This document shows, one piece after another, positions 10,921 through 37,613 of a DNA stretch of 64,000 bases. The position numbers and the translations under genes are program-made. Numbering within the stretch: position 1 is the stretch's first letter; each line of letters starts with the position of its first letter. This DNA is from Escherichia coli (lineage in GTDB: Bacteria; Pseudomonadota; Gammaproteobacteria; Enterobacterales; Enterobacteriaceae). The DNA lies in NCBI RefSeq assembly GCF_016903815.1, contig NZ_CP069973.1. One strand, 5' to 3'. The notes under the pieces were generated by a model. That model was not told the origin of the DNA. It made no database searches and saw only the letters and a list, made by a program, of their open reading frames with translations.

Positions 10921-12234
10921 TCAATCTTTTTTATCGGGATCAGGCTTCTTTTTAGGTAACTTCGGGGGCTTAACTTGCTGATGACTTTGCGTTCGGCGCG
11001 TAAGCCAGGGATGGTCAGCTTTAGGTTTAACATAGTATTTTGAGCGTAAATCAATACGGGCATTATCCACTCGTTCATGGACACTCTTTTCATCATCCAG
11101 TGGTATAGGCTCCGGGCCATCAACATACTTTTCCCAGCCCAGCGCTTTCCCGTCATACAGAACGTTAATTTCACCGTCAAAGTTCTCGCATACAGTAACA
11201 ACCGAATGCCTAAGTCGATATCCCCGGCCCTCACTGCGTACCTGAAACGCACTGCTTTTGTACTGGAAAGTGAGATTTTTAGACAGAACGCGCTTCGCCT
11301 GTAGGCTGAAGATATAACCCAGTTCCTCTTCAGAATGGTGCACATCAAGATGAGCATTATCAGTAGTACGAGGCGACGTAGCGAACCGGTTGTTATAGGC
11401 TTCAATAAAGGTCGGCAACCATGCATTTGCTGTTTCAATATCACTGATATTCTGAAGCCGCATTTCTTTGACCAGCCTGTCCTGTAGTGTCTGATTGGCG
11501 CGCTCTACCCGCCCTTTTGCCTGCGGGCTGTTGGCATGGATTGGCTCGATGCCCAGTGTCTTTATCGCACGAGTGAACTGGGTCAGCTCACCTTCCCGCT
11601 CTGGGTTATTTACCCTGAATATACTGTGTCTATCAGAGTAGAGAGCGAGCGGTACGCCATGATCATTAAGGTAACCCCGGAGGGTTTCCATGTAAGCCCG
11701 GGTTGTTTCAGCAGGCACAAAACGCAACGCCATCAACGCACTGGTGGCATCATCAATGAAAACGATCAGTGTACATCTGGGGCCTCGATTTTCAAACCAG
11801 TCATGAGGTGAGCCATCAATCTGGATCAGTTCACCGTAAGATGGTCGTCGCATGCGGCGTTGATATATACGGGCAATTTTACGACGGCGTTCACGCCATA
11901 ACCCCTCTTCTATCATCCACTTTCTGAGAGTTTCAACGGATAAAGATAAACCGTGTATCTCGCGCAATTTTTCGCACGCAAACGTAGGTCCAAAATCAGC
12001 GTAACGGCCTTTGAGGAGTGAAATTACTGTTGCTCTGAATTCAGTAGAAAAGGAATTATTAGGACGCTTTCCACGTCGGTGGGAAACCAGACCAGAAGGC
12101 CCTTCATTTCTATACCGTTGCACCAGACGTTTAACCTGCCGAATAGAAATGCCAATGCGTGCCGCAGCTTGTTCCTGAATAATCTGAAGTCGGTGGAGTT
12201 CCTTATGACTCATCGTAACAGTCTCTTTGATCAT
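10921..12234 (-). CDS. DDE transposase with N-terminal HTH and rve-type integrase core (IS481/ISNCY-like, family unresolved)
   Basis: 437-aa ORF; the rve/RNase-H-type core is inferred from the overall layout of the protein (segments such as IQIDGSPHDW, LIVFIDDATS, ALYSDRHSIF) and was not verified by a profile search; alternative start at 12213 (MSHKEL). Confidence 0.8.
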   Translation of the reverse strand: MIKETVTMSHKELHRLQIIQEQAAARIGISIRQVKRLVQRYRNEGPSGLVSHRRGKRPNNSFSTEFRATVISLLKGRYADFGPTFACEKLREIHGLSLSVETLRKWMIEEGLWRERRRKIARIYQRRMRRPSYGELIQIDGSPHDWFENRGPRCTLIVFIDDATSALMALRFVPAETTRAYMETLRGYLNDHGVPLALYSDRHSIFRVNNPEREGELTQFTRAIKTLGIEPIHANSPQAKGRVERANQTLQDRLVKEMRLQNISDIETANAWLPTFIEAYNNRFATSPRTTDNAHLDVHHSEEELGYIFSLQAKRVLSKNLTFQYKSSAFQVRSEGRGYRLRHSVVTVCENFDGEINVLYDGKALGWEKYVDGPEPIPLDDEKSVHERVDNARIDLRSKYYVKPKADHPWLTRRTQSHQQVKPPKLPKKKPDPDKKD

Positions 12235-12717: not shown

Positions 12718-13746
12718 TTACGCCTTAATAGGGTTAATCACATTTCCGCTATCCGTACCATAGTATTTTTTTGTAGTCATGCCTTGTTTATAATAATCAT
12801 TTAACAGTTTGAGAAAGTTTCTTCCTTGCCTCTCATCTTCTATGACTAATTTACCATGCTCATTGGTCTTAAACTCTTCGTTCTGAAACATTTTTAGCAC
12901 ATCATTCATAGCTTGAACATCATTCTTTTCCAGAACCGTATGGTTACCTTTCTCAGCGATATGAGTGAGAATTTTTCTCAGTGATGGCTTATGAAGAATA
13001 GCTTGTTCAATAACATCTAAACCTTCAATAAGATCAAGTTCTTTAATTGTATTTAATGTTTTTTGTGCAGCTTCTGTAAACTCAACCTCCAAGCCTACAA
13101 TAGCCTCAAAACTTTTCTTATGAAATACATAAAATTGATCTTTTATATAAATACAATCGATTTTGTCATCAAAATTGACTGCGCTGCCATCAAATGATCT
13201 TAACTCTTTATCTGTTTTATCAAACAAAGCGAATACGCGCTGAGTCATATTTTGTGGTTCATTTGTTGTGACTTTCCCCCTGCTGATTTTTCGGAAAGAA
13301 TAAGTGACGTCAGCCCCCTTTTGGACTTTAATACAATAGGCCCACAAATCATTCTGAACCTCAGCAAGAGAGGTAAGTACAACTGGTTTATCATTCTTTA
13401 TATCGTTATTAATAACTTTTGAAAACGATATCGCGTTATTCATAGCATAGGCATAAATTTTATTATCAATATCATCATCAATAACAGTATGCTTTTTCAT
13501 CACAATATCATCTTTCGAAGCATGAGAAATAATCTGGTTTGATAAAGTATACTTAAAAAATTTAGCAATATCTGGAGCGATTGGAGCTTTAATGATTTTA
13601 AAATCGAATTTATCAACAACTCTTGCGGTTCTACTCATACCCGCTTTAAGATGTCTAGTAATGAAATACAACGATATTTTCGCCGCATCATCATCCTTAA
13701 GTTGCTCAGCATACTCTAATAATTCTTCAAGCTTTAACATTTTCAT
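12718..13746 (-). CDS. Soluble 342-aa protein, candidate Kiwa KwaB-like (DUF4868-like) defense component
   Basis: Second gene of an AT-rich two-gene operon, 4-nt overlap with the upstream membrane-protein gene; family assignment by architecture only. Confidence 0.55.
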   Translation of the reverse strand: MKMLKLEELLEYAEQLKDDDAAKISLYFITRHLKAGMSRTARVVDKFDFKIIKAPIAPDIAKFFKYTLSNQIISHASKDDIVMKKHTVIDDDIDNKIYAYAMNNAISFSKVINNDIKNDKPVVLTSLAEVQNDLWAYCIKVQKGADVTYSFRKISRGKVTTNEPQNMTQRVFALFDKTDKELRSFDGSAVNFDDKIDCIYIKDQFYVFHKKSFEAIVGLEVEFTEAAQKTLNTIKELDLIEGLDVIEQAILHKPSLRKILTHIAEKGNHTVLEKNDVQAMNDVLKMFQNEEFKTNEHGKLVIEDERQGRNFLKLLNDYYKQGMTTKKYYGTDSGNVINPIKA

Positions 13747-14357
13747 TCCTTATGGGATTCAGCATAAAAAAGTTTTGGGCCCACGTCCTCAACATCAAGA
13801 AGATCATCTTCCTCCAAATACTTTGATTTAGTCAAAACCATACCAGTGCGTTTTTTGTCGCTTTCTAAATCCAAATATGTAACTTGATATAAAGTATAAT
13901 TAATACTTATTGTAGGATTTATAAGTATCATGCTTGAATTAATATATATTAAAGCCGTTACCGTTAACAATATTGCTATAGGTATAACATTAGTTAAAGT
14001 GGATAGATCCTGAAATACAAACGGAATTATATATGTAAAAAGATAGCTTATTGATTCATTGTTTTTATTTTCAATATCTATAACTCTTACAGTTCTACCA
14101 CTAGTGGCGCATCGACGTTTTATATTTTTTAAAAAAATTGTTAATCCTACAATACCAAATAATGATAATACACCAATGACACTGACCGCGCCAAAGTATT
14201 TAAAGAAAATAGTTAATGATTCAACACTTATACCTTTCCAATTTAAATAGCTTCTATAAGTATACAATTGCACAAAACACATGATAAAGAATAGGGGAAG
14301 GTATGACACTATAAATAGCGAAACTCTAGCACCTAAATGTAGTTTATTTACTCTCAT
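13743..14357 (-). CDS. Four-helix integral membrane protein, candidate Kiwa KwaA-like
   Basis: 204 aa with four hydrophobic segments (about residues 12-32, 55-76, 103-115, 125-140) and an acidic C-terminal tail; -10-like TAAAAT about 30 nt upstream. Confidence 0.55.
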   Translation of the reverse strand: MRVNKLHLGARVSLFIVSYLPLFFIMCFVQLYTYRSYLNWKGISVESLTIFFKYFGAVSVIGVLSLFGIVGLTIFLKNIKRRCATSGRTVRVIDIENKNNESISYLFTYIIPFVFQDLSTLTNVIPIAILLTVTALIYINSSMILINPTISINYTLYQVTYLDLESDKKRTGMVLTKSKYLEEDDLLDVEDVGPKLFYAESHKE

Positions 14358-14470
14358 AACTACCCCACAGCCTACACGTCTAGTATTTTATGTTATTTCG
14401 AATAATTATGCATCAGATTACCATCCTACAATTGTGCATAAAACGAGCATTTTGCTGATTTTTCTGCGGA

Positions 14471-14500
14471 TGCCTGAGACAGACAACCTCAAGCACCCGC
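14471..14500 (+). repeat. Direct repeat copy B flanking the kwaAB-like cassette
   Basis: TGCCTGAGACAGACAACCTCAAGCACCCGC, about 80 percent identical to copy A over 30 bp, same orientation. Confidence 0.6.
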
Positions 14501-14565
14501 AGCAATTTTACTTAACTCCCGCTACCTCGCCAATATGAAATCAATAAGAAAGGTGCTCCATAAAA

Positions 14566-15252
14566 TCACTCCTTCTCTTCTTTATCGTAGTGGAGTTGAC
14601 CAATTTTGATAAGAGGGCGTCCCTGAGATTTGCGGTGTAGATTGGTATCGCGCAGAGAATACACACAGCCACAATATTCCTGCTGATAGAATTTTTCGCG
14701 CTTGCTGATTTCAATCATGCGGGACGAGCCGCCCTGCTTGCGCCAGTTATAATCCCAGTACACCATGCCCGGATAATGCGCGACGGCTCGCCGCCCACAG
14801 TCGTTAACCTGCTGCATATTTTTCCAGCGTGAAATGCCCAGTGAACTGCTGATCACACTGAAACCATTTTCAGCAGCGTACAGCGCTGTCCGCTCAAAAC
14901 GCATGTCAAAACACATGGTACAACGGATCCCCCTCTCGGGCTCCCATTCCATTCCTTTGGCACGTTCAAACCAGTTGTCTGTGTCGTAATCAGCATCAAT
15001 AAATGGCACGCCGTGTTGTTCAGCAAAGCGAATATTCTCATCCTTACGAATTAAATACTCTTTCTGAGGATGAATGTTCGGGTTGTAGAAAAAGATGGTA
15101 TAGTCGATTCTCGAGGCCTGAAGTGCCTCCATCACTTCACCGGAACATGGAGCACAGCAAGAGTGCAGTAGTAGTTTGTTTGCCCCGTTTGGGAGCTCCA
15201 ATTTAGGCCGTTTGAAATCAGCAATAGTCATAAATATTTTTATTGGGGTCAT
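14566..15252 (-). CDS. QueH-like (DUF208) epoxyqueuosine-reductase homolog
   Basis: N-terminal [11 protein letters not shown] motif plus further conserved Cys (CTMC, CGC); alternative start at 15231. Confidence 0.65.
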
Positions 15253-15433: not shown

Positions 15434-15832
15434 TCACTGATAAAATGCCAGTATGCGCTGCATAACTTCGCTCTTCCGGCACTCACAGCAAATTATGTTT
15501 TGGTGCCTGTCATAACGACGTATTTCTCCGTCAGGTAATGACCAGATAAGGTCCGGATCAACCACAGATGTTTTCTTCACCTTTGCCCTCGAGAGTTTTT
15601 TGCGGGCGTTTTGCCAGTCCTTACGAGCCTGTTCAGACGGGAATAACCCGTAGCCAGAGTTATATACATCACCACTGGCAACCAGCTCTCTGGCGAGAAC
15701 GCTCATCAGATATCTTGTCGCACCTGTCTTGGCTTCCAGTTGCCGTAACGTCTCGCGCCCACTCCGGCGTACTAGCTCAACAACCTGCCCCTTGATTTTT
15801 TCCCGCTCTTCTTGTGTAAAAACTTTTGCCAC
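15434..15832 (-). CDS. Hypothetical prophage early protein (132 aa)
   Basis: ORF downstream of the replication gene on the same strand; CCxC motif near the C-terminus. Confidence 0.45.
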   Translation of the reverse strand: MAKVFTQEEREKIKGQVVELVRRSGRETLRQLEAKTGATRYLMSVLARELVASGDVYNSGYGLFPSEQARKDWQNARKKLSRAKVKKTSVVDPDLIWSLPDGEIRRYDRHQNIICCECRKSEVMQRILAFYQ

Positions 15833-15872
15833 AAGTCCCCCTTAAAATTACCTCATGACCTGAAATCAAAAC

Positions 15873-16892
15873 TTATCCTCTGAAACCAGGCGGAATTTCT
15901 GTATCCGGTTCAGAAATATGATTAACACAACGCTGTACAGGTGAACGCCCCAGGCGGATGACCAGTTCGTCCCATTTTTCGCGGAGCTTTGACGGGCTCA
16001 TGATGTTTTTTACCCAGAATGGATCCCGCTGTACCCGACCAAACATTTCACAAATTTGTCTGTGACTTCTGCCATCCAGCATCCGCATTGTGCGCACATC
16101 ATTGGCCCAGACAGTCCAGTTAGGCTCTTTTGGTCGCATGATCTCGCCATCATCACTGGCGGCCTGTTCGTAGAGACCCACGATCCGCCCCCATATCCAC
16201 TGCGCACACGCCAGATCCTCCTGGCTACCCCACTGGCGTTTTTTCGCACTAAACACAACTGCGCCAGGGTGCCGGATTAAAAAATCCTGTTCAGCCGTCT
16301 GCGGGTCCGGTTGCGAAGCTTCCGGACGAAAAGTGTTTTTATTCTCTGTAGTAATCTCTGTTGTATTCTCTGTAGGATCATCGGGCCATTTTGACCCGAT
16401 GACATTGGGTCGTTTTGAACCAATGGAGCGTTTCATTTTGACCTCTTCCATCGTGTCATTTTGACCTGATGGAGCGGCGCATTTTGAACCGATGGATTCG
16501 CTCAATTTGCCATCATCTAAAAGCTCGCTCCCATAGTTAATCGTGTAGAAATTGGTCATATCGCGCTTTGATTTATTGAGCTTTTCACAACGCAAAAGCC
16601 CCAGCGTTTTCAGACTTGCAAACGCGCGCTTTAACGTTGACTCTGACCAGAATGGGAACTGTTCCAGCCATTGTTCCGTTGTGTTGTAAATCCAGCGAAC
16701 ACCATCACATTCCATGCCGGAATTGGTATCTCTCAACCAGTAATGCAACTGCTGCAACACAATGGCTTCATTTAAGCCAATCTTCATCGCAAGCTGTGTG
16801 TTTATAACCAGTGGGCGTTCAGCAAAAAGAAGGCTCATAATTCCATCCAGCTTTTTGTTGGTATTGCTGTCGATACGCAAGCTTGAAAGCAA
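15873..16892 (-). CDS. Phage replication initiator (lambda O-like)
   Basis: 339-aa ORF with HTH-like N-terminal domain; central IGSK repeats encoded by DNA iterons; start codon uncertain. Confidence 0.65.
   Translation of the reverse strand: MLSSLRIDSNTNKKLDGIMSLLFAERPLVINTQLAMKIGLNEAIVLQQLHYWLRDTNSGMECDGVRWIYNTTEQWLEQFPFWSESTLKRAFASLKTLGLLRCEKLNKSKRDMTNFYTINYGSELLDDGKLSESIGSKCAAPSGQNDTMEEVKMKRSIGSKRPNVIGSKWPDDPTENTTEITTENKNTFRPEASQPDPQTAEQDFLIRHPGAVVFSAKKRQWGSQEDLACAQWIWGRIVGLYEQAASDDGEIMRPKEPNWTVWANDVRTMRMLDGRSHRQICEMFGRVQRDPFWVKNIMSPSKLREKWDELVIRLGRSPVQRCVNHISEPDTEIPPGFRG
16330..16520. repeat. Candidate phage origin: five to six iterons (consensus about CATTTTGACCYGATGG) plus adjacent ATTCTCTGTAG repeats, inside the O-like gene
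   Basis: Tandem near-repeats at roughly 20-24-bp spacing between 16385 and 16520, AT-rich repeats at 16340-16378. Confidence 0.6.
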
Positions 16893-17340
16893 TTGCTTTT
16901 TCTATAAGTTCGTCAGTTTCACGATCCACTACGGCAGGATCAGCAAAAAGCAGTCCGGACTCCACCACATCGCCATATTCTTTGTTTAACCCGGCGATCA
17001 TGCACGTGATGCTTTTTCCGTCAGTAATTTCACGATACAACCTGAAATCACTAATCCGGATAGCCTCCATAATCGCAGGCACTAGCGCCGTGAACTTTTC
17101 ACGCTTATCCCTGGTGTCGATAGCCTTCCAGCGTTCGAATATCTTCACTCGATTAACGCCAAGCGCTCGCTGATCAACCGCGCCACCTTCATCTGTGACA
17201 CGCTGAACATCGATGTTCGGGCGCTCTTTCAAAGCCCAGAATGCTTCAGTGATTAATATCGTCGCCTGCTCCTGTGTCATTCCTGGTCGACATATCCAGG
17301 CATCCAGAGCCTCACGAGCCTGTTCAGGAGTGATTTTCAT
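16819..17340 (-). CDS. Hypothetical early protein in the cII position (173 aa)
   Basis: ORF between the cro-like dicC and the O-like gene; function not recognisable. Confidence 0.45.
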   Translation of the reverse strand: MKITPEQAREALDAWICRPGMTQEQATILITEAFWALKERPNIDVQRVTDEGGAVDQRALGVNRVKIFERWKAIDTRDKREKFTALVPAIMEAIRISDFRLYREITDGKSITCMIAGLNKEYGDVVESGLLFADPAVVDRETDELIEKAIAFKLAYRQQYQQKAGWNYEPSFC

Positions 17341-17554
17341 TGTTCAACCGCCCCGCCCGCTTCGTCTTACGATATTCATCATAAACTTTGGGATCATACT
17401 GAAGCTCCCCGCCAGATGCCTCCTGTAGACGCATCGCGCGACCTTCAGGAACCAGTATCCCCCAAGCAGCAACACTTGCCAGCCTCACTCCTGCGGCATT
17501 GGCAAGCTTTGTTTTGCTGCCAAAAAAAGTAATTGCGTCAACTTTAAGCATCAA
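17324..17554 (-). CDS. dicC: Cro-like repressor DicC
   Basis: 76-aa ORF divergent from dicA; sequence recalled as DicC. Confidence 0.75.
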   Translation of the reverse strand: MMLKVDAITFFGSKTKLANAAGVRLASVAAWGILVPEGRAMRLQEASGGELQYDPKVYDEYRKTKRAGRLNNENHS

Positions 17555-17631
17555 AGCCCCCTCTTGTTAGACTTTTCTAACATTATTGTGCGCGGGATAC
17601 CTAAGTCAAGAAAAATTAGAATTACCTAACT

Positions 17632-18039
17632 ATGGATACAAGAACCCTGGGCCAGCGAGTTCTGGCGCGACGAAAAGAATTACGCTTAACACAACGAGAA
17701 GCCGCGCGCCTCGCTGGAGTTGCTCACGTCACAATTTCACAATGGGAAAGAGACGAAACCCAGCCAGTCGGAAAACGATTGTTTGCTTTAGCGGATGCTC
17801 TGAAGTGCTCACCTACATGGCTAATGTTTGGTGACGAAGACAAGGCACCAGTGCCTGCACAAGAACTTCATGTGGAAACAGAGCTAACTCCCAACCACAA
17901 AGAATTGATCGAATTATTCGATGCTCTTCCATCTTCCGAGCAGGAAGCCTTGCTGTCTGAAATGCGCGCAAGAGTAGAAAACTTCAACAAACTCTTCGAA
18001 GAAATGCTTAAAGCGCGTAAAAATAAATCAATAAAATAA
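17632..18039 (+). CDS. dicA: HTH-XRE repressor DicA
   Basis: 135 aa MDTRTLGQRVLARRKELRLTQREAARLAGVAHVTISQWERDETQP…. Confidence 0.9.
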   Translation: MDTRTLGQRVLARRKELRLTQREAARLAGVAHVTISQWERDETQPVGKRLFALADALKCSPTWLMFGDEDKAPVPAQELHVETELTPNHKELIELFDALPSSEQEALLSEMRARVENFNKLFEEMLKARKNKSIK

Positions 18040-19896: not shown

Positions 19897-22368
19897 ATGA
19901 GTAAAGTCTTTATTTGCGCCGCTATTCCTGACGAACTGGCAACAAGGGAAGAAGGCGCTGTGGCTGTAGCCACAGCCATTGAAGCTGGCGACGAACGCCG
20001 TGCTCGAGCAAAATTTCACTGGCAATTCCTGGAACATTATCCGGCTGCTCAGGACTGCGTTTATAAATTTATTGTCTGCGAGGATAAACCTGGCATACCC
20101 CGCCCTGCCCTCGATTCATGGGATGCTGAATATATGCAGGAAAACCGCTGGGATGAGGAGTCTGCTTCTTTTGTCCCGGTTGAGACTGAATCCGATCCGA
20201 TGAACGTCACTTTTGACAAGCTGGCCCCTGAAGTACAGAACGCTGTCATGGTTAAGTTCGACACATGTGAAAACATCACCGTTGATATGGTTATTAGCGC
20301 ACAGGAATTGTTGCAGGAAGACATGGCAACATTCGACGGACATATCGTTGAAGCGTTGATGAAAATGCCAGAAGTTAACGCCATGTATCCGGAGCTTAAG
20401 TTGCACGCCATTGGGTGGGTTAAGCATAAATGTATTCCTGGTGCTAAATGGCCCGAAATTCAGGCAGAGATGCGCATCTGGAAAAAACGTCGCGAAGGTG
20501 AACGCAAGGAAACCGGAAAATACACGTCTGTTGTTGATCTCGCCCGCGCCAGAGCCAATCAACAGTACACTGAAAATTCAACAGGAAAAATCAGCCCGGT
20601 CATTGCTGCCATTCATCGCGAATACAAGCAGACATGGAAAACACTGGATGACGAACTGGCCTACGCTCTCTGGCCTGGTGATGTGGATGCCGGAAACATT
20701 GACGGCAGCATCCATCGCTGGGCAAAAAATGAAGTTATCGATAACGACCGCGAAGACTGGAAGCGTATCTCGGCATCAATGCGCAAACAGCCTGATGCCC
20801 TTCGCTACGACCGCCAAACTATTTTTGGCCTTGTCCGTGAACGTCCGATCGACATTCACAAAGATCCCGTAGCACTGAACAAATATATCTGCGAATACCT
20901 GACGACAAAGGGCGTGTTTGAGAATGAAGAAACAGACCTGGGCACTGTTGATGTTCTCCAGTCATCAGAAACACAAACTGATGCAGTGGAAACTGAGGTA
21001 TCTGATATCCCAAAAAATGAAACCGCGCCGGAAGCTGAACCATCTGTAGAGCGTGAGGGGCCGTTCTATTTCCTCTTCGCAGATAAGGACGGAGAAAAAT
21101 ACGGTCGCGCAAACAAACTTTCTGGTCTGGATAAGGCACTGGCTGCTGGCGCCACTGAAATCACAAAAGAAGAATATTTTGCCCGAAAAAATGGCACATA
21201 CACGGGCTTACCGCAAAATGTAGATACCGCTGAAGATTCAGAACAACCAGAGCCGATGAAAGTTACCGCTGACGAAGTAAACAACATTATGCAGGCAGCC
21301 AATATCATCCAGCCTGACGCCGATAAGTTGCTTGCTGCATCACGTGGTGAATTTGTTGAAGGGATTAGTGACCCGAATGATCCGAAATGGGTTAAGGGGA
21401 TCCAGACCCGCGATTCTGTGAACCAGAACCAGCATGAATCGGAACGGAACTACCAAAAAGCGGAACAAAACAGCCCAAATGCGTTACAAAACGAGCCAGA
21501 AACGAAACAGCCTGAATCAGTGGCGCAACAGGAAGTGGAAAAAGTCTGCACCGCCTGCGGTCAGACCGGCGGCGGCAACTGCCCTGATTGTGGCGCGGTA
21601 ATGGGCGACGCAACATACCAGGAAACATTCGATGAAGAGTATCAGGTTGAAGTTCAGGAAGATGATCCGGAGAAAATGGAAGGCGCTGAACATCCACACA
21701 AGGAGAACACTGGCGGCAATCAGCATCACGATAGCGATAATGAAACTGGCGAGACGGCAGATCACTCAATTAAGGTGAACGGTCATCACGAAATCACATC
21801 CACCAGCAGGACGTGTGACCATCTAATGATCGACCTTGAAACCATGGGAAAAAATCCTGATGCCCCGATCATCTCAATAGGTGCAATATTTTTCGATCCG
21901 CAAACCGGAGATATGGGACCGGAATTTAGTAAGACTATCGATCTGGAAACTGCTGGCGGAGTCATTGATCGGGACACCATTAAATGGTGGCTTAAGCAAT
22001 CACGCGAAGCGCAATCTGCCATTATGACCGATGAAATCCCGTTAGATGATGCACTGTTACAATTGCGGGAATTTATCGACGAAAACTCCGGTGAATTTTT
22101 TGTTCAGGTCTGGGGAAATGGAGCCAACTTCGACAACACGATTTTGCGCCGTTCATACGAACGGCAGGGGATCCCCTGCCCGTGGCGTTACTACAACGAT
22201 CGCGATGTACGCACAATCGTTGAGCTGGGGAAAGCCATAGACTTCGATGCCAGAACGGCTATTCAATTCGAAGGTGAGCGCCATAATGCACTTGATGACG
22301 CCCGTTACCAGGCAAAATACGTTTCAGTTATCTGGCAAAAACTGATCCCGAGTCAGGCTGATTCTTAA
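19897..22368 (+). CDS. ydfE: Large prophage protein (YdfE-like), 823 aa, with C-terminal DnaQ-like DEDDh 3'-5' exonuclease domain
   Basis: Exo motifs I (MIDLETMG), II ([12 protein letters not shown]) and III ([13 protein letters not shown]) in the last about 180 aa; acidic low-complexity linker; CxxC…CxxC around residues 550-560. Confidence 0.7.
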
Positions 22369-22762: not shown

Positions 22763-23440
22763 ATGTCCATCATTTTTAATGGACACTATCGTATGAAACA
22801 CCGGACCTGGATCACTGAAGCTTTACGTCTTCACTTTGAAGAACATTTACCCCGGGTTGTGGCCGGGCGTCGCCTGGGTGTACCAAAATCAACAGTTTGT
22901 AGTATGTTCGTGCGCTTTCGGAGAGCTGGCCTTTCGTGGCCTTTGCCCGCAGGCATGTCGGAGCAGGAACTTGATGCCTGCCTTTACGGACAATTTTCCA
23001 CGGTACCAGTCGTACGTCCTGAAAGCACCGTTATATCCGAAGCCCCCGTGGTAAAAAAACGTCCCCGGCGGCCCAACTTCCCTTATGAGTTTAAAATCGC
23101 CTTAGTGGAGCAGTCACTGCAGCCCGGAGCCTGTGTGGCGCAGATCGCCCGGGAAAACGGAATCAACGATAACCTGCTCTTCAACTGGCGCCATCAATAC
23201 CGGAAAGGTGGCCTGCTGCCTTCCGGAAAAAATATGCCGGCACTGCTTCCCGTGACGTTAACGCCGGAGCCGGATAATAAAATCCCGGCCCCCGCACAGG
23301 AACCAGAGCAGATAAATACACCGTCCGACAGTCTGTGTTGTGAGCTGGTTCTGCCGGCCGGAACTCTCAGGCTTAAAGGTAAACTGACGCCGGCGTTATT
23401 ACAGACACTTATCCGCGAAATAAAAGGGAGCAGCCACTGA
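22763..23440 (+). CDS. tnpA: IS66-family accessory protein (orf1/TnpA, HTH)
   Basis: ORF with IS66 orf1-like segment (…FKIALVEQSLQPGACVAQIARENGINDNLLFNWRHQYRKG…); start uncertain (22763 or 22793). Confidence 0.65.
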   Translation: MSIIFNGHYRMKHRTWITEALRLHFEEHLPRVVAGRRLGVPKSTVCSMFVRFRRAGLSWPLPAGMSEQELDACLYGQFSTVPVVRPESTVISEAPVVKKRPRRPNFPYEFKIALVEQSLQPGACVAQIARENGINDNLLFNWRHQYRKGGLLPSGKNMPALLPVTLTPEPDNKIPAPAQEPEQINTPSDSLCCELVLPAGTLRLKGKLTPALLQTLIREIKGSSH

Positions 23441-23787
23441 TGATATCTCTCCCTGCAGGTTCGCGTATCTGGCTGGTTGCAGGTATCACCGATATGCGAA
23501 ATGGCTTTAACGGCCTGGCATCAAAAGTTCAGAACGTCCTGAAGGATGACCCGTTCTCCGGACACCTGTTCATCTTCCGCGGACGCCGGGGTGACCAGAT
23601 AAAAGTGTTGTGGGCTGACAGTGACGGACTGTGCCTCTTCACCAAACGCCTGGAGCGGGGCCGCTTCGTCTGGCCAGTCACCCGTGACGGCAAGGTGCAC
23701 CTTACTCCGGCTCAGTTATCCATGCTTCTTGAAGGTATCAACTGGAAGCACCCGAAACGAACGGAACGCGCTGGAATCCGCATATAA
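23440..23787 (+). CDS. tnpB: IS66-family TnpB (orf2)
   Basis: 115 aa MISLPAGSRIWLVAGITDMRNGFNGLA…; ATGA overlap with orf1. Confidence 0.85.
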   Translation: MISLPAGSRIWLVAGITDMRNGFNGLASKVQNVLKDDPFSGHLFIFRGRRGDQIKVLWADSDGLCLFTKRLERGRFVWPVTRDGKVHLTPAQLSMLLEGINWKHPKRTERAGIRI

Positions 23788-23806
23788 CCCGTTGTAAAGT
23801 GAGGAT

Positions 23807-25378
23807 ATGGACACCTCACTTGCTCATGAGAACGCCCGCCTGCGGGCACTGTTGCAGACGCAACAGGACACCATCCGCCAGATGGCTGAATACAACCGCC
23901 TGCTCTCACAGCGGGTGGCGGCTTATGCTTCCGAAATCAACCGGCTGAAGGCGCTGGTTGCGAAACTGCAACGTATGCAGTTCGGTAAAAGCTCAGAAAA
24001 ACTTCGTGCAAAAACCGAACGGCAGATACAGGAAGCACAGGAGCGAATCAGCGCACTTCAGGAAGAAATGGCGGAAACGCTGGGTGAGCAATATGACCCG
24101 GTACTGCCATCCGCCCTGCGCCAGTCTTCAGCCCGTAAACCGTTACCGGCCTCACTTCCCCGTGAAACCCGGGTTATCCGGCCGGAAGAGGAATGCTGTC
24201 CTGCCTGTGGTGGTGAACTCAGTTCTCTGGGATGTGATGTGTCAGAGCAACTGGAGCTTATCAGCAGCGCCTTTAAGGTTATCGAAACACAACGTCCGAA
24301 ACAGGCCTGTTGCCGGTGCGACCATATCGTGCAGGCACCAGTACCTTCAAAACCCATTGCACGCAGTTATGCCGGAGCGGGGCTTCTGGCCCATGTTGTC
24401 ACCGGGAAATATGCAGACCATCTGCCGTTATACCGCCAGTCAGAAATATACCGTCGTCAGGGAGTGGAGCTGAGCCGTGCCACACTGGGGCGCTGGACAG
24501 GTGCTGTTGCTGAACTGCTGGAGCCGCTGTATGACGTCCTGCGCCAGTATGTGCTGATGCCCGGTAAAGTCCATGCTGATGATATCCCCGTCCCGGTCCA
24601 GGAGCCGGGCAGCGGTAAAACCCGGACAGCCCGGCTGTGGGTCTACGTCCGTGATGACCGTAACGCCGGTTCACAGATGCCCCCGGCGGTCTGGTTCGCG
24701 TACAGTCCGGACCGGAAAGGTATCCATCCACAAAATCACCTGGCCGGTTACAGCGGTGTGCTTCAGGCCGATGCTTACGGTGGTTACCGGGCGTTATACG
24801 AATCCGGCAGAATAACGGAAGCCGCGTGTATGGCTCATGCCCGGAGAAAAATCCACGATGTGCATGCAAGAGCGCCCACCTACATCACCACGGAAGCCCT
24901 GCAGCGTATCGGTGAACTGTATGCCATCGAGGCAGAGGTCCGGGGCTGTTCAGCAGAACAGCGTCTGGCGGCAAGAAAAGCCAGAGCCGCGCCACTGATG
25001 CAGTCACTGTATGACTGGATACAGCAACAGATGAAAACACTGTCGCGTCACTCAGATACGGCAAAAGCGTTCGCATACCTGCTGAAACAGTGGGATGCAC
25101 TGAACGTGTACTGCAGTAATGGCTGGGTGGAAATCGACAACAACATCGCAGAGAACGCCTTACGGGGAGTGGCCGTAGGCCGGAAAAACTGGATGTTCGC
25201 GGGTTCCAACAGCGGTGGTGAACATGCGGCGGTGTTGTACTCGCTGATCGGCACATGCCGTCTGAACAATGTGGAGCCAGAAAAGTGGCTGCGTTACGTC
25301 ATTGAACATATCCAGGACTGGCCGGCAAACCGGGTACGCGATCTGTTGCCCTGGAAAGTTGATCTGAGCTCTCAGTAA
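23807..25378 (+). CDS. tnpC: IS66-family transposase TnpC (DDE)
   Basis: 523 aa with coiled-coil N-terminus, CxxC zinc motifs (CPACGG…CCRCDH) and DDE core. Confidence 0.9.
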
Positions 25379-36995: not shown

Positions 36996-37613
36996 ATGAC
37001 CACACAATATGGATTTTTTATCGATTCCAGCCGCTGTACTGGCTGTAAAACCTGCGAACTGGCGTGCAAAGATTTTAAAGATCTTGGCCCGGAAGTCAGT
37101 TTCCGCCGTATTTATGAATATGCTGGCGGCGACTGGCAGGAAGATAATGGCGTCTGGCACCAGAACGTGTTCGCTTATTATCTCTCCATCTCCTGTAACC
37201 ATTGCGATGACCCCGCATGTACAAAAGTCTGCCCCAGCGGCGCAATGCATAAGCGTGAAGATGGCTTTGTGGTGGTTGATGAAGATGTTTGTATCGGCTG
37301 CCGCTACTGCCACATGGCTTGTCCGTACGGCGCGCCACAGTACAATGCTGAAAAAGGGCACATGACGAAGTGCGATGGTTGTTATTCGCGCGTCGCCGAG
37401 GGGAAACAACCCATATGTGTCGAATCCTGCCCGCTGCGTGCACTTGAGTTCGGTCCAATTGATGAGCTGCGCCAGAAGCACGGCACTCTGGCTGCCGTCG
37501 CGCCACTGCCGCGCGCGCATTTCACAAAACCCAATATCGTTATCAAACCTAACGCCAACAGCCGCCCGACCGGCGATACCACTGGTTATCTGGCTAATCC
37601 GGAGGAAGTGTAA
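36996..37613 (+). CDS. ynfG: 4Fe-4S ferredoxin subunit YnfG (DmsB paralog)
   Basis: 205 aa with four Cys clusters. Confidence 0.9.
   Translation: MTTQYGFFIDSSRCTGCKTCELACKDFKDLGPEVSFRRIYEYAGGDWQEDNGVWHQNVFAYYLSISCNHCDDPACTKVCPSGAMHKREDGFVVVDEDVCIGCRYCHMACPYGAPQYNAEKGHMTKCDGCYSRVAEGKQPICVESCPLRALEFGPIDELRQKHGTLAAVAPLPRAHFTKPNIVIKPNANSRPTGDTTGYLANPEEV

Follow-up and report, generated by a model that had tools for sequence, protein, structure and literature searches.

The window studied here is a stretch of 64,000 nucleotides of the Escherichia coli contig NZ_CP069973.1 (NCBI RefSeq assembly GCF_016903815.1), and we are concerned with a short replication module within it: a gene for a lambda-O-like initiator protein and the two open reading frames (ORFs) of 173 and 132 amino acids (aa) that flank it. 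The window recurs with 100% identity in E. coli chromosomes such as NZ_CP023820.1. A Qin-type lambdoid prophage occupies positions 1 to about 26,700. Its border on one side is an IS1 element together with gnsB and cspI, and on the other it is int, after which comes the host gene rspB. Because the prophage is interrupted by insertion sequences (ISs) and contains no structural genes according to the annotation of the window, we regard it as defective, or cryptic. The module belongs to its early-right operon, which lies on the minus strand. An original prediction, made from the letters of the sequence, had placed the two ORFs on either side of the O-like gene, and this is indeed where they are. 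The gene order is that of lambda (cro-cII-O-P-ren), but the P slot is empty. From the repressor to the end of the module, the features are as follows.

17632–18039, plus strand: prophage repressor, DicA/CI-like, with an HTH_3 domain (Pfam HTH_3, E = 1.5e-14; RefSeq coding sequence, CDS), divergent from the early-right operon
17582–17609, minus strand: PR-like sigma-70 promoter between the repressor and cro genes, TTGACT-16-AATAAT (agrees with the consensus at 10 of 12 positions)
17324–17551, minus strand: Cro/DicC-like regulator (Pfam P22_Cro, E = 5e-12; phrog_409; RefSeq CDS)
16819–17340, minus strand: 173-aa YdaT-family protein, ATG start (PF06254; phrog_163; RefSeq CDS)
15873–16838, minus strand: 321-aa O-like initiator, ATG start (phrog_391 "replication initiation O-like", E = 3.5e-92)
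16378–16517, inside the O-like gene: putative origin of five clear iterons and a degenerate one, with a 23-bp period (repeat families D1 and D2 and direct reading)
16335–16377, immediately downstream of the iterons in gene direction: A/T-richer stretch with TACAGAGAATA direct repeats (repeat families D5 and D9 and sequence)
15876–15935, minus strand: DnaT-type tail QRCVNHISEPDTEIPPGFRG, encoded by the final 20 codons of the O-like gene (identical to E. coli DnaT 160–179 at 14 of 20 residues)
15434–15832, minus strand: 132-aa DUF977/Ren-like winged-helix protein, GTG start, LygF in phage records (PF06163; phrog_142)

The PR-like sequence is a consensus match only, and its position suggests that it acts as the promoter of the operon. 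In the mechanical ORF list the O-like gene starts at a TTG at 16892, which is an over-extension of the real gene given above. The reading frames of the O, YdaT and DUF977 genes are intact. Both flanking ORFs are real genes and not chance ORFs, since for each there are hundreds of conserved homologues as well as a significant match to a family hidden Markov model. Protein searches with the two ORFs mostly returned E. coli copies that are more than 90% identical; the diversity of DUF977 comes from a 50%-cluster search. RefSeq contains identical CDSs for both in a 100% identical E. coli chromosome and calls them "toxin YdaT family protein" (173 aa) and "DUF977 family protein" (132 aa). The two ORFs are therefore ordinary, as members of named families that are already annotated as such. 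The part of the original prediction that is worth keeping is the missing helicase loader.

The O-like gene encodes an origin-binding initiator and carries the origin inside its own coding sequence. Its product consists of a winged-helix N-domain, a linker encoded by the iterons, a lambda-O-type C-terminal domain and the DnaT-type tail. Residues 147–294 align with residues 135–270 of lambda O (34% identity, E = 3e-27), a region of lambda O that is classically assigned to the interaction with P. PF04492 (Phage_rep_O) is not matched by the O-like protein in a Pfam search that recovers lambda O itself at 5.7e-36. The core of the iterons is GGTCAAAATG, set within the palindrome CATCGG..CCGATG, and the putative origin has the same relative position within the gene as lambda ori has in O. 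By analogy with lambda ori, the A/T-richer stretch could be the unwinding element.

No DnaC- or P-like gene was visible to the original prediction, and our searches bear this out. Lambda P, a 220-aa P-like protein, Rac YdaV and E. coli DnaC have no tblastn match in the window at E ≤ 0.01, and the same is true for DnaB when it is added to the queries. Neither the two flanking ORFs nor any other ORF of the window has a Pfam match to P (PF06992) or DnaC/IstB (PF01695). The same four-gene module is found at 95–96% identity in the complete phage genomes HannyBb (96%), PhiR42_1 and mEp460_ev081, and in the 45-kb genome of HannyBb tblastn likewise finds no DnaB, DnaC, YdaV or P. Phage Tritos shares this layout but differs in the N-domain of its O protein. 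Some of the complete genomes with a loader-less module (HannyBb, Tritos, PhiR42_1, mEp460_ev081 and LLS) were isolated as phages. The module in the window is an "O-only" lambdoid module, that is, an O homologue without a helicase or loader gene. According to a 2025 survey, only an O homologue is present in 34 of 314 enterobacterial lambdoid phages (about one in nine), and their replication "is not yet understood" (PMC12315714).

The tail of the O-like protein shares 70% identity with the E. coli DnaT C-terminus, with the common pattern VNxxSEPDxxIPPGFRG-COOH, and it shares 13 of 19 residues (68%) with Rac YdaU. It is unrelated to the tail of lambda O. The O-like protein is not a DnaT, because on the NCBIfam DnaT equivalog model (NF002770) it reaches 16.3 bits against a cut-off of 201 and matches only positions 160–179; an NCBIfam scan added nothing beyond this weak match. 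It has no match to the DNA-binding domain of DnaT (PF17948) and also lacks the DnaT N-terminal domain. In E. coli, dnaC directly follows dnaT. Over its full length Rac YdaV has 50% identity with the host's DnaC, and in sister prophages the same O alleles as here are followed 7 nucleotides (nt) later by a YdaV-type paralogue of DnaC. The Enterobacterales are the order in which a phage dnaC was domesticated (PMC5109545). None of the papers covered by our literature search contains PPGFRG or IPPGFR.

We also scanned 100,044 species genomes with a pattern for the exact tail. About half of the 120 matches are chance matches (short non-homologous ORFs, unrelated phyla; about 100 chance matches were estimated), and only in-frame homologous matches were used. 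Among the first 80 loci, for which titles were seen, the real matches are almost all from Enterobacterales, with a few metagenome bins otherwise. They are either 179-aa DnaT proteins with a DnaC at −3 to +3 nt or prophage initiators. At one locus, L396, a 179-aa DnaT homologue (72% identical to that of E. coli) is not directly followed by an ORF recognisable as DnaC-like, in contrast to all other chromosomal DnaT loci with enough downstream sequence for a judgement. This exception could be due to a frameshift or an assembly problem.

The relation between tail and loader was followed in four surveys, together more than 350 loci, which were selected by tail, by loader, by DUF977 and by P. For the tail-selected set, IMG/VR was searched with a degenerate DNA pattern for IPPGFRG-stop, which gave 117 in-frame ORF ends. 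Nearly all of these ORFs resemble initiator reference proteins. The 117 ORFs form 18 sequence clusters, and the inspected representatives belong to at least six architectures, including a DUF1376 type with a DnaT-like C-terminus, PF17948, HTH_36 + Phg_2220_C and a winO type. A DnaC-like gene follows the initiator within 0–7 nt in 68 of the 110 evaluable loci, no loader is found in 42 and a P-like loader in none. The 42 loader-less initiators span 10 of the 18 clusters, and three clusters contain both states.

When loci are selected by loader instead (with a divergent DnaC-like protein as the query), the upstream initiator has an IP[PDA]GF[RT]G or PPGFN end in 68 of 69 cases, 298-aa lambda-O-type proteins among them. 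The same tail class occurs in 33 of the 34 initiators that lie upstream of a DnaC-like gene in the DUF977-selected set. Both sets together give an IPxGFxG tail in 101 of 103 initiators upstream of DnaC-like loaders. Initiators upstream of P-like loaders end differently. All 74 from the P-selected set have the ending LDLTNTDWIYGV[DE]L, and upstream of the 220-aa P-like loaders, which are Phage_lambda_P by Pfam (E = 1.3e-15), nine of nine end in FEALDC[PT]DW[RC]DD. Overall, all 83 initiators upstream of P-like loaders carry an LDxxDW tail. One representative initiator of the 220-aa P-like class has the DnaT DNA-binding domain by Pfam. All four combinations of tail and globular C-domain (lambda-O or DnaT type) occur, and the type of loader goes with the tail and not with the domain. 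LLS, a cultured phage without a loader that was chosen independently of its tail, has an O protein ending in ...KIPEGFRG.

Our best explanation, to which we give slightly better than even chances, is that the module is a loader-less early-right operon with YdaT, O-like and Ren-like genes, in which the tail of the O protein docks the DnaB-DnaC complex of the host. The O-like initiator would bind its iterons, and its last ~17–20 residues (...SEPDTEIPPGFRG-COOH) would then dock the host's DnaB6-DnaC6. Host DnaC would thereby take the place of the phage-encoded YdaV-type DnaC paralogue of the sister prophages. The loader itself would be the most parsimonious partner of the tail, because DnaB, PriA and SSB of the host are constant across these phages. 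The original prediction had offered two places where helicase recruitment might reside: the O-like protein's C-terminal domain, or one of the flanking proteins. Judged from sequence comparison, the C-terminus is the better candidate, and within it specifically the DnaT-type tail.

Several points weigh against this explanation. We found no report in the literature of the tail binding to DnaC, and a 2026 paper on the structure of the preprimosome proposes the N-terminal domain of DnaT as the part that recruits DnaB-DnaC. Compared with DnaT 84–179, DnaT 84–153 shows weaker and less cooperative binding to single-stranded DNA (ssDNA) (PMC4132743). Since the removal of residues 154–179 lowers both affinity and cooperativity, the tail may serve oligomerisation instead. 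The codons of the tail lie 0–7 nt from the loader gene, and physical linkage at a mosaic breakpoint, not a common function, could be what keeps tail and loader together. The surveyed loci are related prophages and the counts are not independent events. The prophage that carries the module is itself cryptic, IS-interrupted and without structural genes. One could also object to the regulatory part of the explanation, i.e., the role of the YdaT-family protein. The operator of the CP-933P YdaT protein (TTGATTN6AATCAA, up to 3 mismatches) is not enriched in the window, with 40 matches where 46 are expected by chance.

The tail may also recruit a different host factor, for example PriA or PriB of the restart primosome, or a pocket that binds the tip of SSB. 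Initiation would then depend on PriA, and DnaC would act afterwards. With its acidic residues followed by I-P-x-G-F, the tail bears a loose resemblance to the C-terminal tip of SSB. DnaT is a component of the preprimosome that docks on PriA and PriB (PMC13377028), and the DnaT papers that we examined state no function for residues 154–179. We nevertheless consider this explanation unlikely. These E. coli-type hosts all have the same PriA, PriB, SSB and DnaB, but the class of the tail switches with the loader. In addition, cryo-EM (cryo-electron microscopy) work puts the PriA contact in the globular C-terminal domain of DnaT and the PriB contact in its acidic linker.

One could also argue that the tail mediates self-association and cooperative binding to ssDNA, as the DnaT truncation suggests (PMC4132743), and that the helicase is recruited by another surface, for example by the lambda-O-type C-domain contacting DnaB or DnaC. 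This would leave unexplained why the tail class tracks the type of loader across unrelated globular domains. Moreover, the winO-type initiator has only the tail in common with DnaT and not the ssDNA-binding domain. We regard this explanation as quite improbable.

Slightly less probable still is that the loader-less state is a product of decay, in which a ydaV-type loader and its DUF1627 neighbour were deleted and the module no longer replicates. The cryptic, IS-interrupted state of the prophage would fit, and so would the occurrence of the same O alleles both with and without YdaV; the constant 41-nt spacer downstream of loader-less O genes looks like the precise loss or gain of a cassette. 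Against decay stands the occurrence of the identical loader-less module in complete genomes, some of them from isolated phages (HannyBb, Tritos, PhiR42_1, mEp460_ev081 and LLS). The share of loader-less phages among lambdoid phages (34 of 314; PMC12315714) speaks against decay as well, as do the 42 of 110 tail-bearing initiators from IMG/VR without a loader, across 10 of 18 clusters, and the intact frames of O, YdaT and DUF977.

The remaining explanation requires a closer look at the 132-aa protein, which the original prediction had left unassigned. It is matched by PF06163 (DUF977) over residues 1–132 with 100.8 bits (cut-off 22.1, E = 8e-29), and it is a winged-helix homologue of lambda Ren. 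Both proteins match phrog_142 "Ren-like exclusion protein" (E = 4.4e-44 for the 132-aa protein and 1.6e-41 for lambda Ren). When a profile of diverse DUF977 proteins is aligned with lambda Ren by hhalign, the probability is 94.3% (E = 9.6e-8) over 73 columns that cover the winged helix and a C-terminal motif. This motif, N-x-[IV]-x-x-E-C-R-x-S-x-x-M-x-R-[VI]-L-A-x-Y, is common to the DUF977 protein and lambda Ren, and ECRxSxxMxR[VI]LxFY is invariant in two DUF977 alignments (A2 and A3). In the AlphaFold2 model a winged helix spans residues 7–64 (helices 7–24, 29–36 and 40–53, beta hairpin 57–64) at a predicted local distance difference test (pLDDT) score of about 90. It is followed by another helix, then by a disordered linker and, at 116–131, by a C-terminal helix. 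Foldseek matches the model in the PDB only to generic MarR-, GntR- and ArsR-type winged helices (E ~0.02).

The original prediction was right that this protein does not resemble a helicase loader: neither the P nor the DnaC family matches it in Pfam, and its predicted fold has no ATPase or P-like features. It was not right about the position of the gene. Because of the homology to lambda Ren and the synteny with loader-carrying modules, the gene is in the ren position and not in the P position; the P slot is empty, with 41 nt between the stop of O and the start of DUF977. In 80 prophage loci that were chosen solely for DUF977, the gene comes after every kind of module: YdaU with YdaV (DnaC-like) and DUF1627, lambda-type O with YdaV and DUF1627, other initiators with the 220-aa P-like protein and DUF1627, and O alone. 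Where O is alone, the spacer to DUF977 is always 41 nt. In several other loader-less lineages, and in phage LLS, DUF977 is absent beside the initiator, and in the lineages without it DUF1064, RuvC-like or methyltransferase genes take its place. We expect DUF977 to be a non-essential, Ren-like accessory DNA-binding protein rather than a loader.

From the phage, lambda replication requires only O and P, and this counts against DUF977 as a functional analogue of P. That DUF977 is the missing recruitment factor can be given hardly any credence: in this type of module its distance from the loader-less O gene upstream is indeed always 41 nt, and lambda Ren is described as "likely involved in DNA replication" and gives two-hybrid signals with Rex proteins (bioRxiv 10.1101/2021.04.19.439022), but DUF977 is equally present after complete modules with DnaC-like or P-like loaders, is missing beside other loader-less, tail-bearing initiators including that of LLS, and has a generic winged-helix fold with no link to either loader family. 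On this synteny we rejected DUF977 as a loader, and the evidence counts against either flanking protein as the place of recruitment that the original prediction had offered.

Some further observations concern DUF977 and its surroundings. The 3′ end of the gene (15434–15460) is a mosaic junction, and its last eight or nine residues vary between alleles. This is why the copy in the window has 132 aa instead of the usual 140–141 aa. The similarity to HannyBb and PhiR42_1 stops at about 15427. HannyBb contains a second stretch that resembles lambda Ren 29–79 (positions 37447–37584 of its genome; 41% identity, E = 7e-7), just downstream of a gene for a Q-like antiterminator and away from its DUF977 gene. 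DUF1627, a protein of about 250–275 aa with two winged helices and a full-length relative of K-12 YdaW, is usually encoded between the DnaC-like or P-like loader and DUF977 (loci L006–L085 and L088–L207, e.g., L094 and L008). It is missing along with the loader in most loader-less modules of this type, and is kept without a loader in a few loci (L028, L056, L133, L155 and L164).

The 173-aa protein is a YdaT-family helix-turn-helix (HTH) regulator. The original prediction had correctly seen that it is unlike CII: no similarity to Phage_CII (PF05269) appears in a Pfam search in which lambda CII itself scores E = 1e-48. It is not unassigned, however, and its homology to YdaT is clear. It matches PF06254 (YdaT_toxin) with 23.9 bits (cut-off 21, E = 5.6e-5) and phrog_163 "CII-like transcriptional activator" with E = 2.6e-40. 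With the single sequence, a search of the PDB gives weak matches to 3c4r and 8bt1 (E ~0.05). A profile of the protein's own subfamily (A7) matches only 8bt1 (E = 5.7e-4) and 3c4r (3e-3). A richer profile, A6, reached E = 1e-43 to 8bt1 but was discarded as circular, since it contained near-identical YdaT sequences.

The predicted fold agrees with this assignment. The AlphaFold2 model has a mean pLDDT of 75 and exceeds 90 over most of residues 21–100. Helices 5–16 and 23–35, a loop of 21 residues (36–56) and helices 57–73, 77–97 and 99–106 are predicted at about 90, and the C-terminal helices 111–127 and 135–163 at only about 50–58. The top four Foldseek matches of the model in the PDB are YdaT chains (probability 1.0) and the next match has E > 1, with the caveat that the alignment used for the model contained YdaT sequences. 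R70-W71 is invariant in the alignments and aligns with IF-RW of 8bt1 and 3c4r. YdaT has a POU-like HTH domain with a long α2–α3 loop (9–23 residues), a conserved arginine in α3 (Arg60 in CP-933P YdaT) and a long tetramerisation helix, and the tetramer is needed for DNA binding (PMC9986795). The family is an experimentally supported analogue of CII in Rac and CP-933P-type phages, without sequence similarity to lambda CII (PMC9986795).

If the 173-aa protein acts as YdaT does in CP-933P, it would bind near the cro/ydaT junction and activate leftward transcription of the repressor. Because the CP-933P operator is not enriched, its DNA specificity probably differs from that of CP-933P YdaT. A search for short inverted repeats near the junction found nothing convincing. 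One of the matches to the CP-933P operator, with three mismatches (17330–17347), coincides precisely with the stretch where the cro-like and ydaT-like genes overlap. PADLOC finds no match to a defence system for either the YdaT or the DUF977 protein.

A defence system is encoded nearby. Downstream of DUF977, on the minus strand, there is a complete Kiwa anti-phage system, with KwaA at 13743–14357 (PADLOC E = 1e-101) and KwaB at 12718–13740 (E = 5e-158). The gene directly downstream of DUF977 encodes QueH (epoxyqueuosine reductase; 14566–15231, minus strand), and together these genes form a cargo region (12718–15231) after which a remnant of an ISNCY transposase follows. QueH comes after DUF977 in other prophages too (L090, L194 and L349). 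L348 and L349 are contigs of a 'Collinsella sp.' metagenome bin with E. coli-type modules of O alone, DUF977 and QueH; the actinobacterial assignment is probably a binning error and not the real host. The prophage contains four IS elements or remnants: IS1 (1–629), IS200C (4177–4635), the ISNCY remnant (11191–12234) and the IS66-family ISCro1 (22763–25378), which is positioned between xis and int. In the early-left operon there is an intact gene for an 823-aa RecE-like exonuclease (19897–22368, plus strand). HannyBb and PhiR42_1 have kept this gene in the same position beside xis and int.

Our results also allow a wider reading, for which we would put the chances a little below even: the IPxGF[RT]G tail, common to DnaT and at least six unrelated architectures of phage initiators, is a portable motif that docks loaders of the DnaC family, and LDxxDW has the same role for loaders of the P family. 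If so, capture of the host's DnaB-DnaC by the tail would explain how loader-less lambdoid phages replicate. The gene pair dnaT-dnaC would be a domesticated phage initiator-loader pair, and it would be the tail of DnaT, not its N-terminal domain, that brings DnaB-DnaC to the restart primosome. A 2026 structural paper describes the way in which DnaB-DnaC is recruited by the PriA-PriB-DnaT preprimosome as unknown. The link between tail class and loader across several hundred loci provides one simple hypothesis that bears both on O-only replication and on preprimosome recruitment. Annotators could also predict the loader of an initiator from its last dozen residues, if the motif is indeed portable.

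How does the module compare with known systems? Like CP-933P and Rac YdaT (PDB 8bt1 and 3c4r), the 173-aa protein is encoded directly after a cro-like gene and before the replication genes. It shares with them the match to YdaT_toxin, the predicted all-alpha HTH fold with a 21-residue α2–α3 loop and R70, and a C-terminal helical region is predicted with low confidence. It is only about 21–33% identical to the K-12 and CP-933P types and has 173 aa with an extra helical segment, where CP-933P and Rac YdaT have 140–141 aa. Lambda Ren resembles the DUF977 protein in its position at the end of the replication module, its N-terminal winged helix and its C-terminal motif. With 96 aa, compared to 132–141 aa for DUF977 proteins, it lacks the extra helix and the disordered linker, and it falls below the threshold of the Pfam DUF977 model. 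Lambda Ren protects its phage against exclusion by Rex, and there are no rex genes here.

The lambda O-P module has its origin iterons and A/T-rich stretch within the initiator gene as well, and the C-terminal domains of the two initiators are 34% identical. Lambda differs in its Phage_rep_O N-domain, its P gene and its tail LDLTNTDWIYGVDL; here, the protein ends in IPPGFRG. The ydaU-ydaV pair of Rac and the dnaT-dnaC pair of the host encode the same C-terminal tail as the O-like gene, and the window is without ydaV. The O-only module of LLS (PMC12315714) differs in that its O protein has the HTH_36 + Phg_2220_C architecture, that O is followed by a methyltransferase gene instead of DUF977 and that its cII-type gene is a different one. 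What it has in common with the module in the window is an O homologue without a helicase or loader gene, and a tail of the same class (IPEGFRG).

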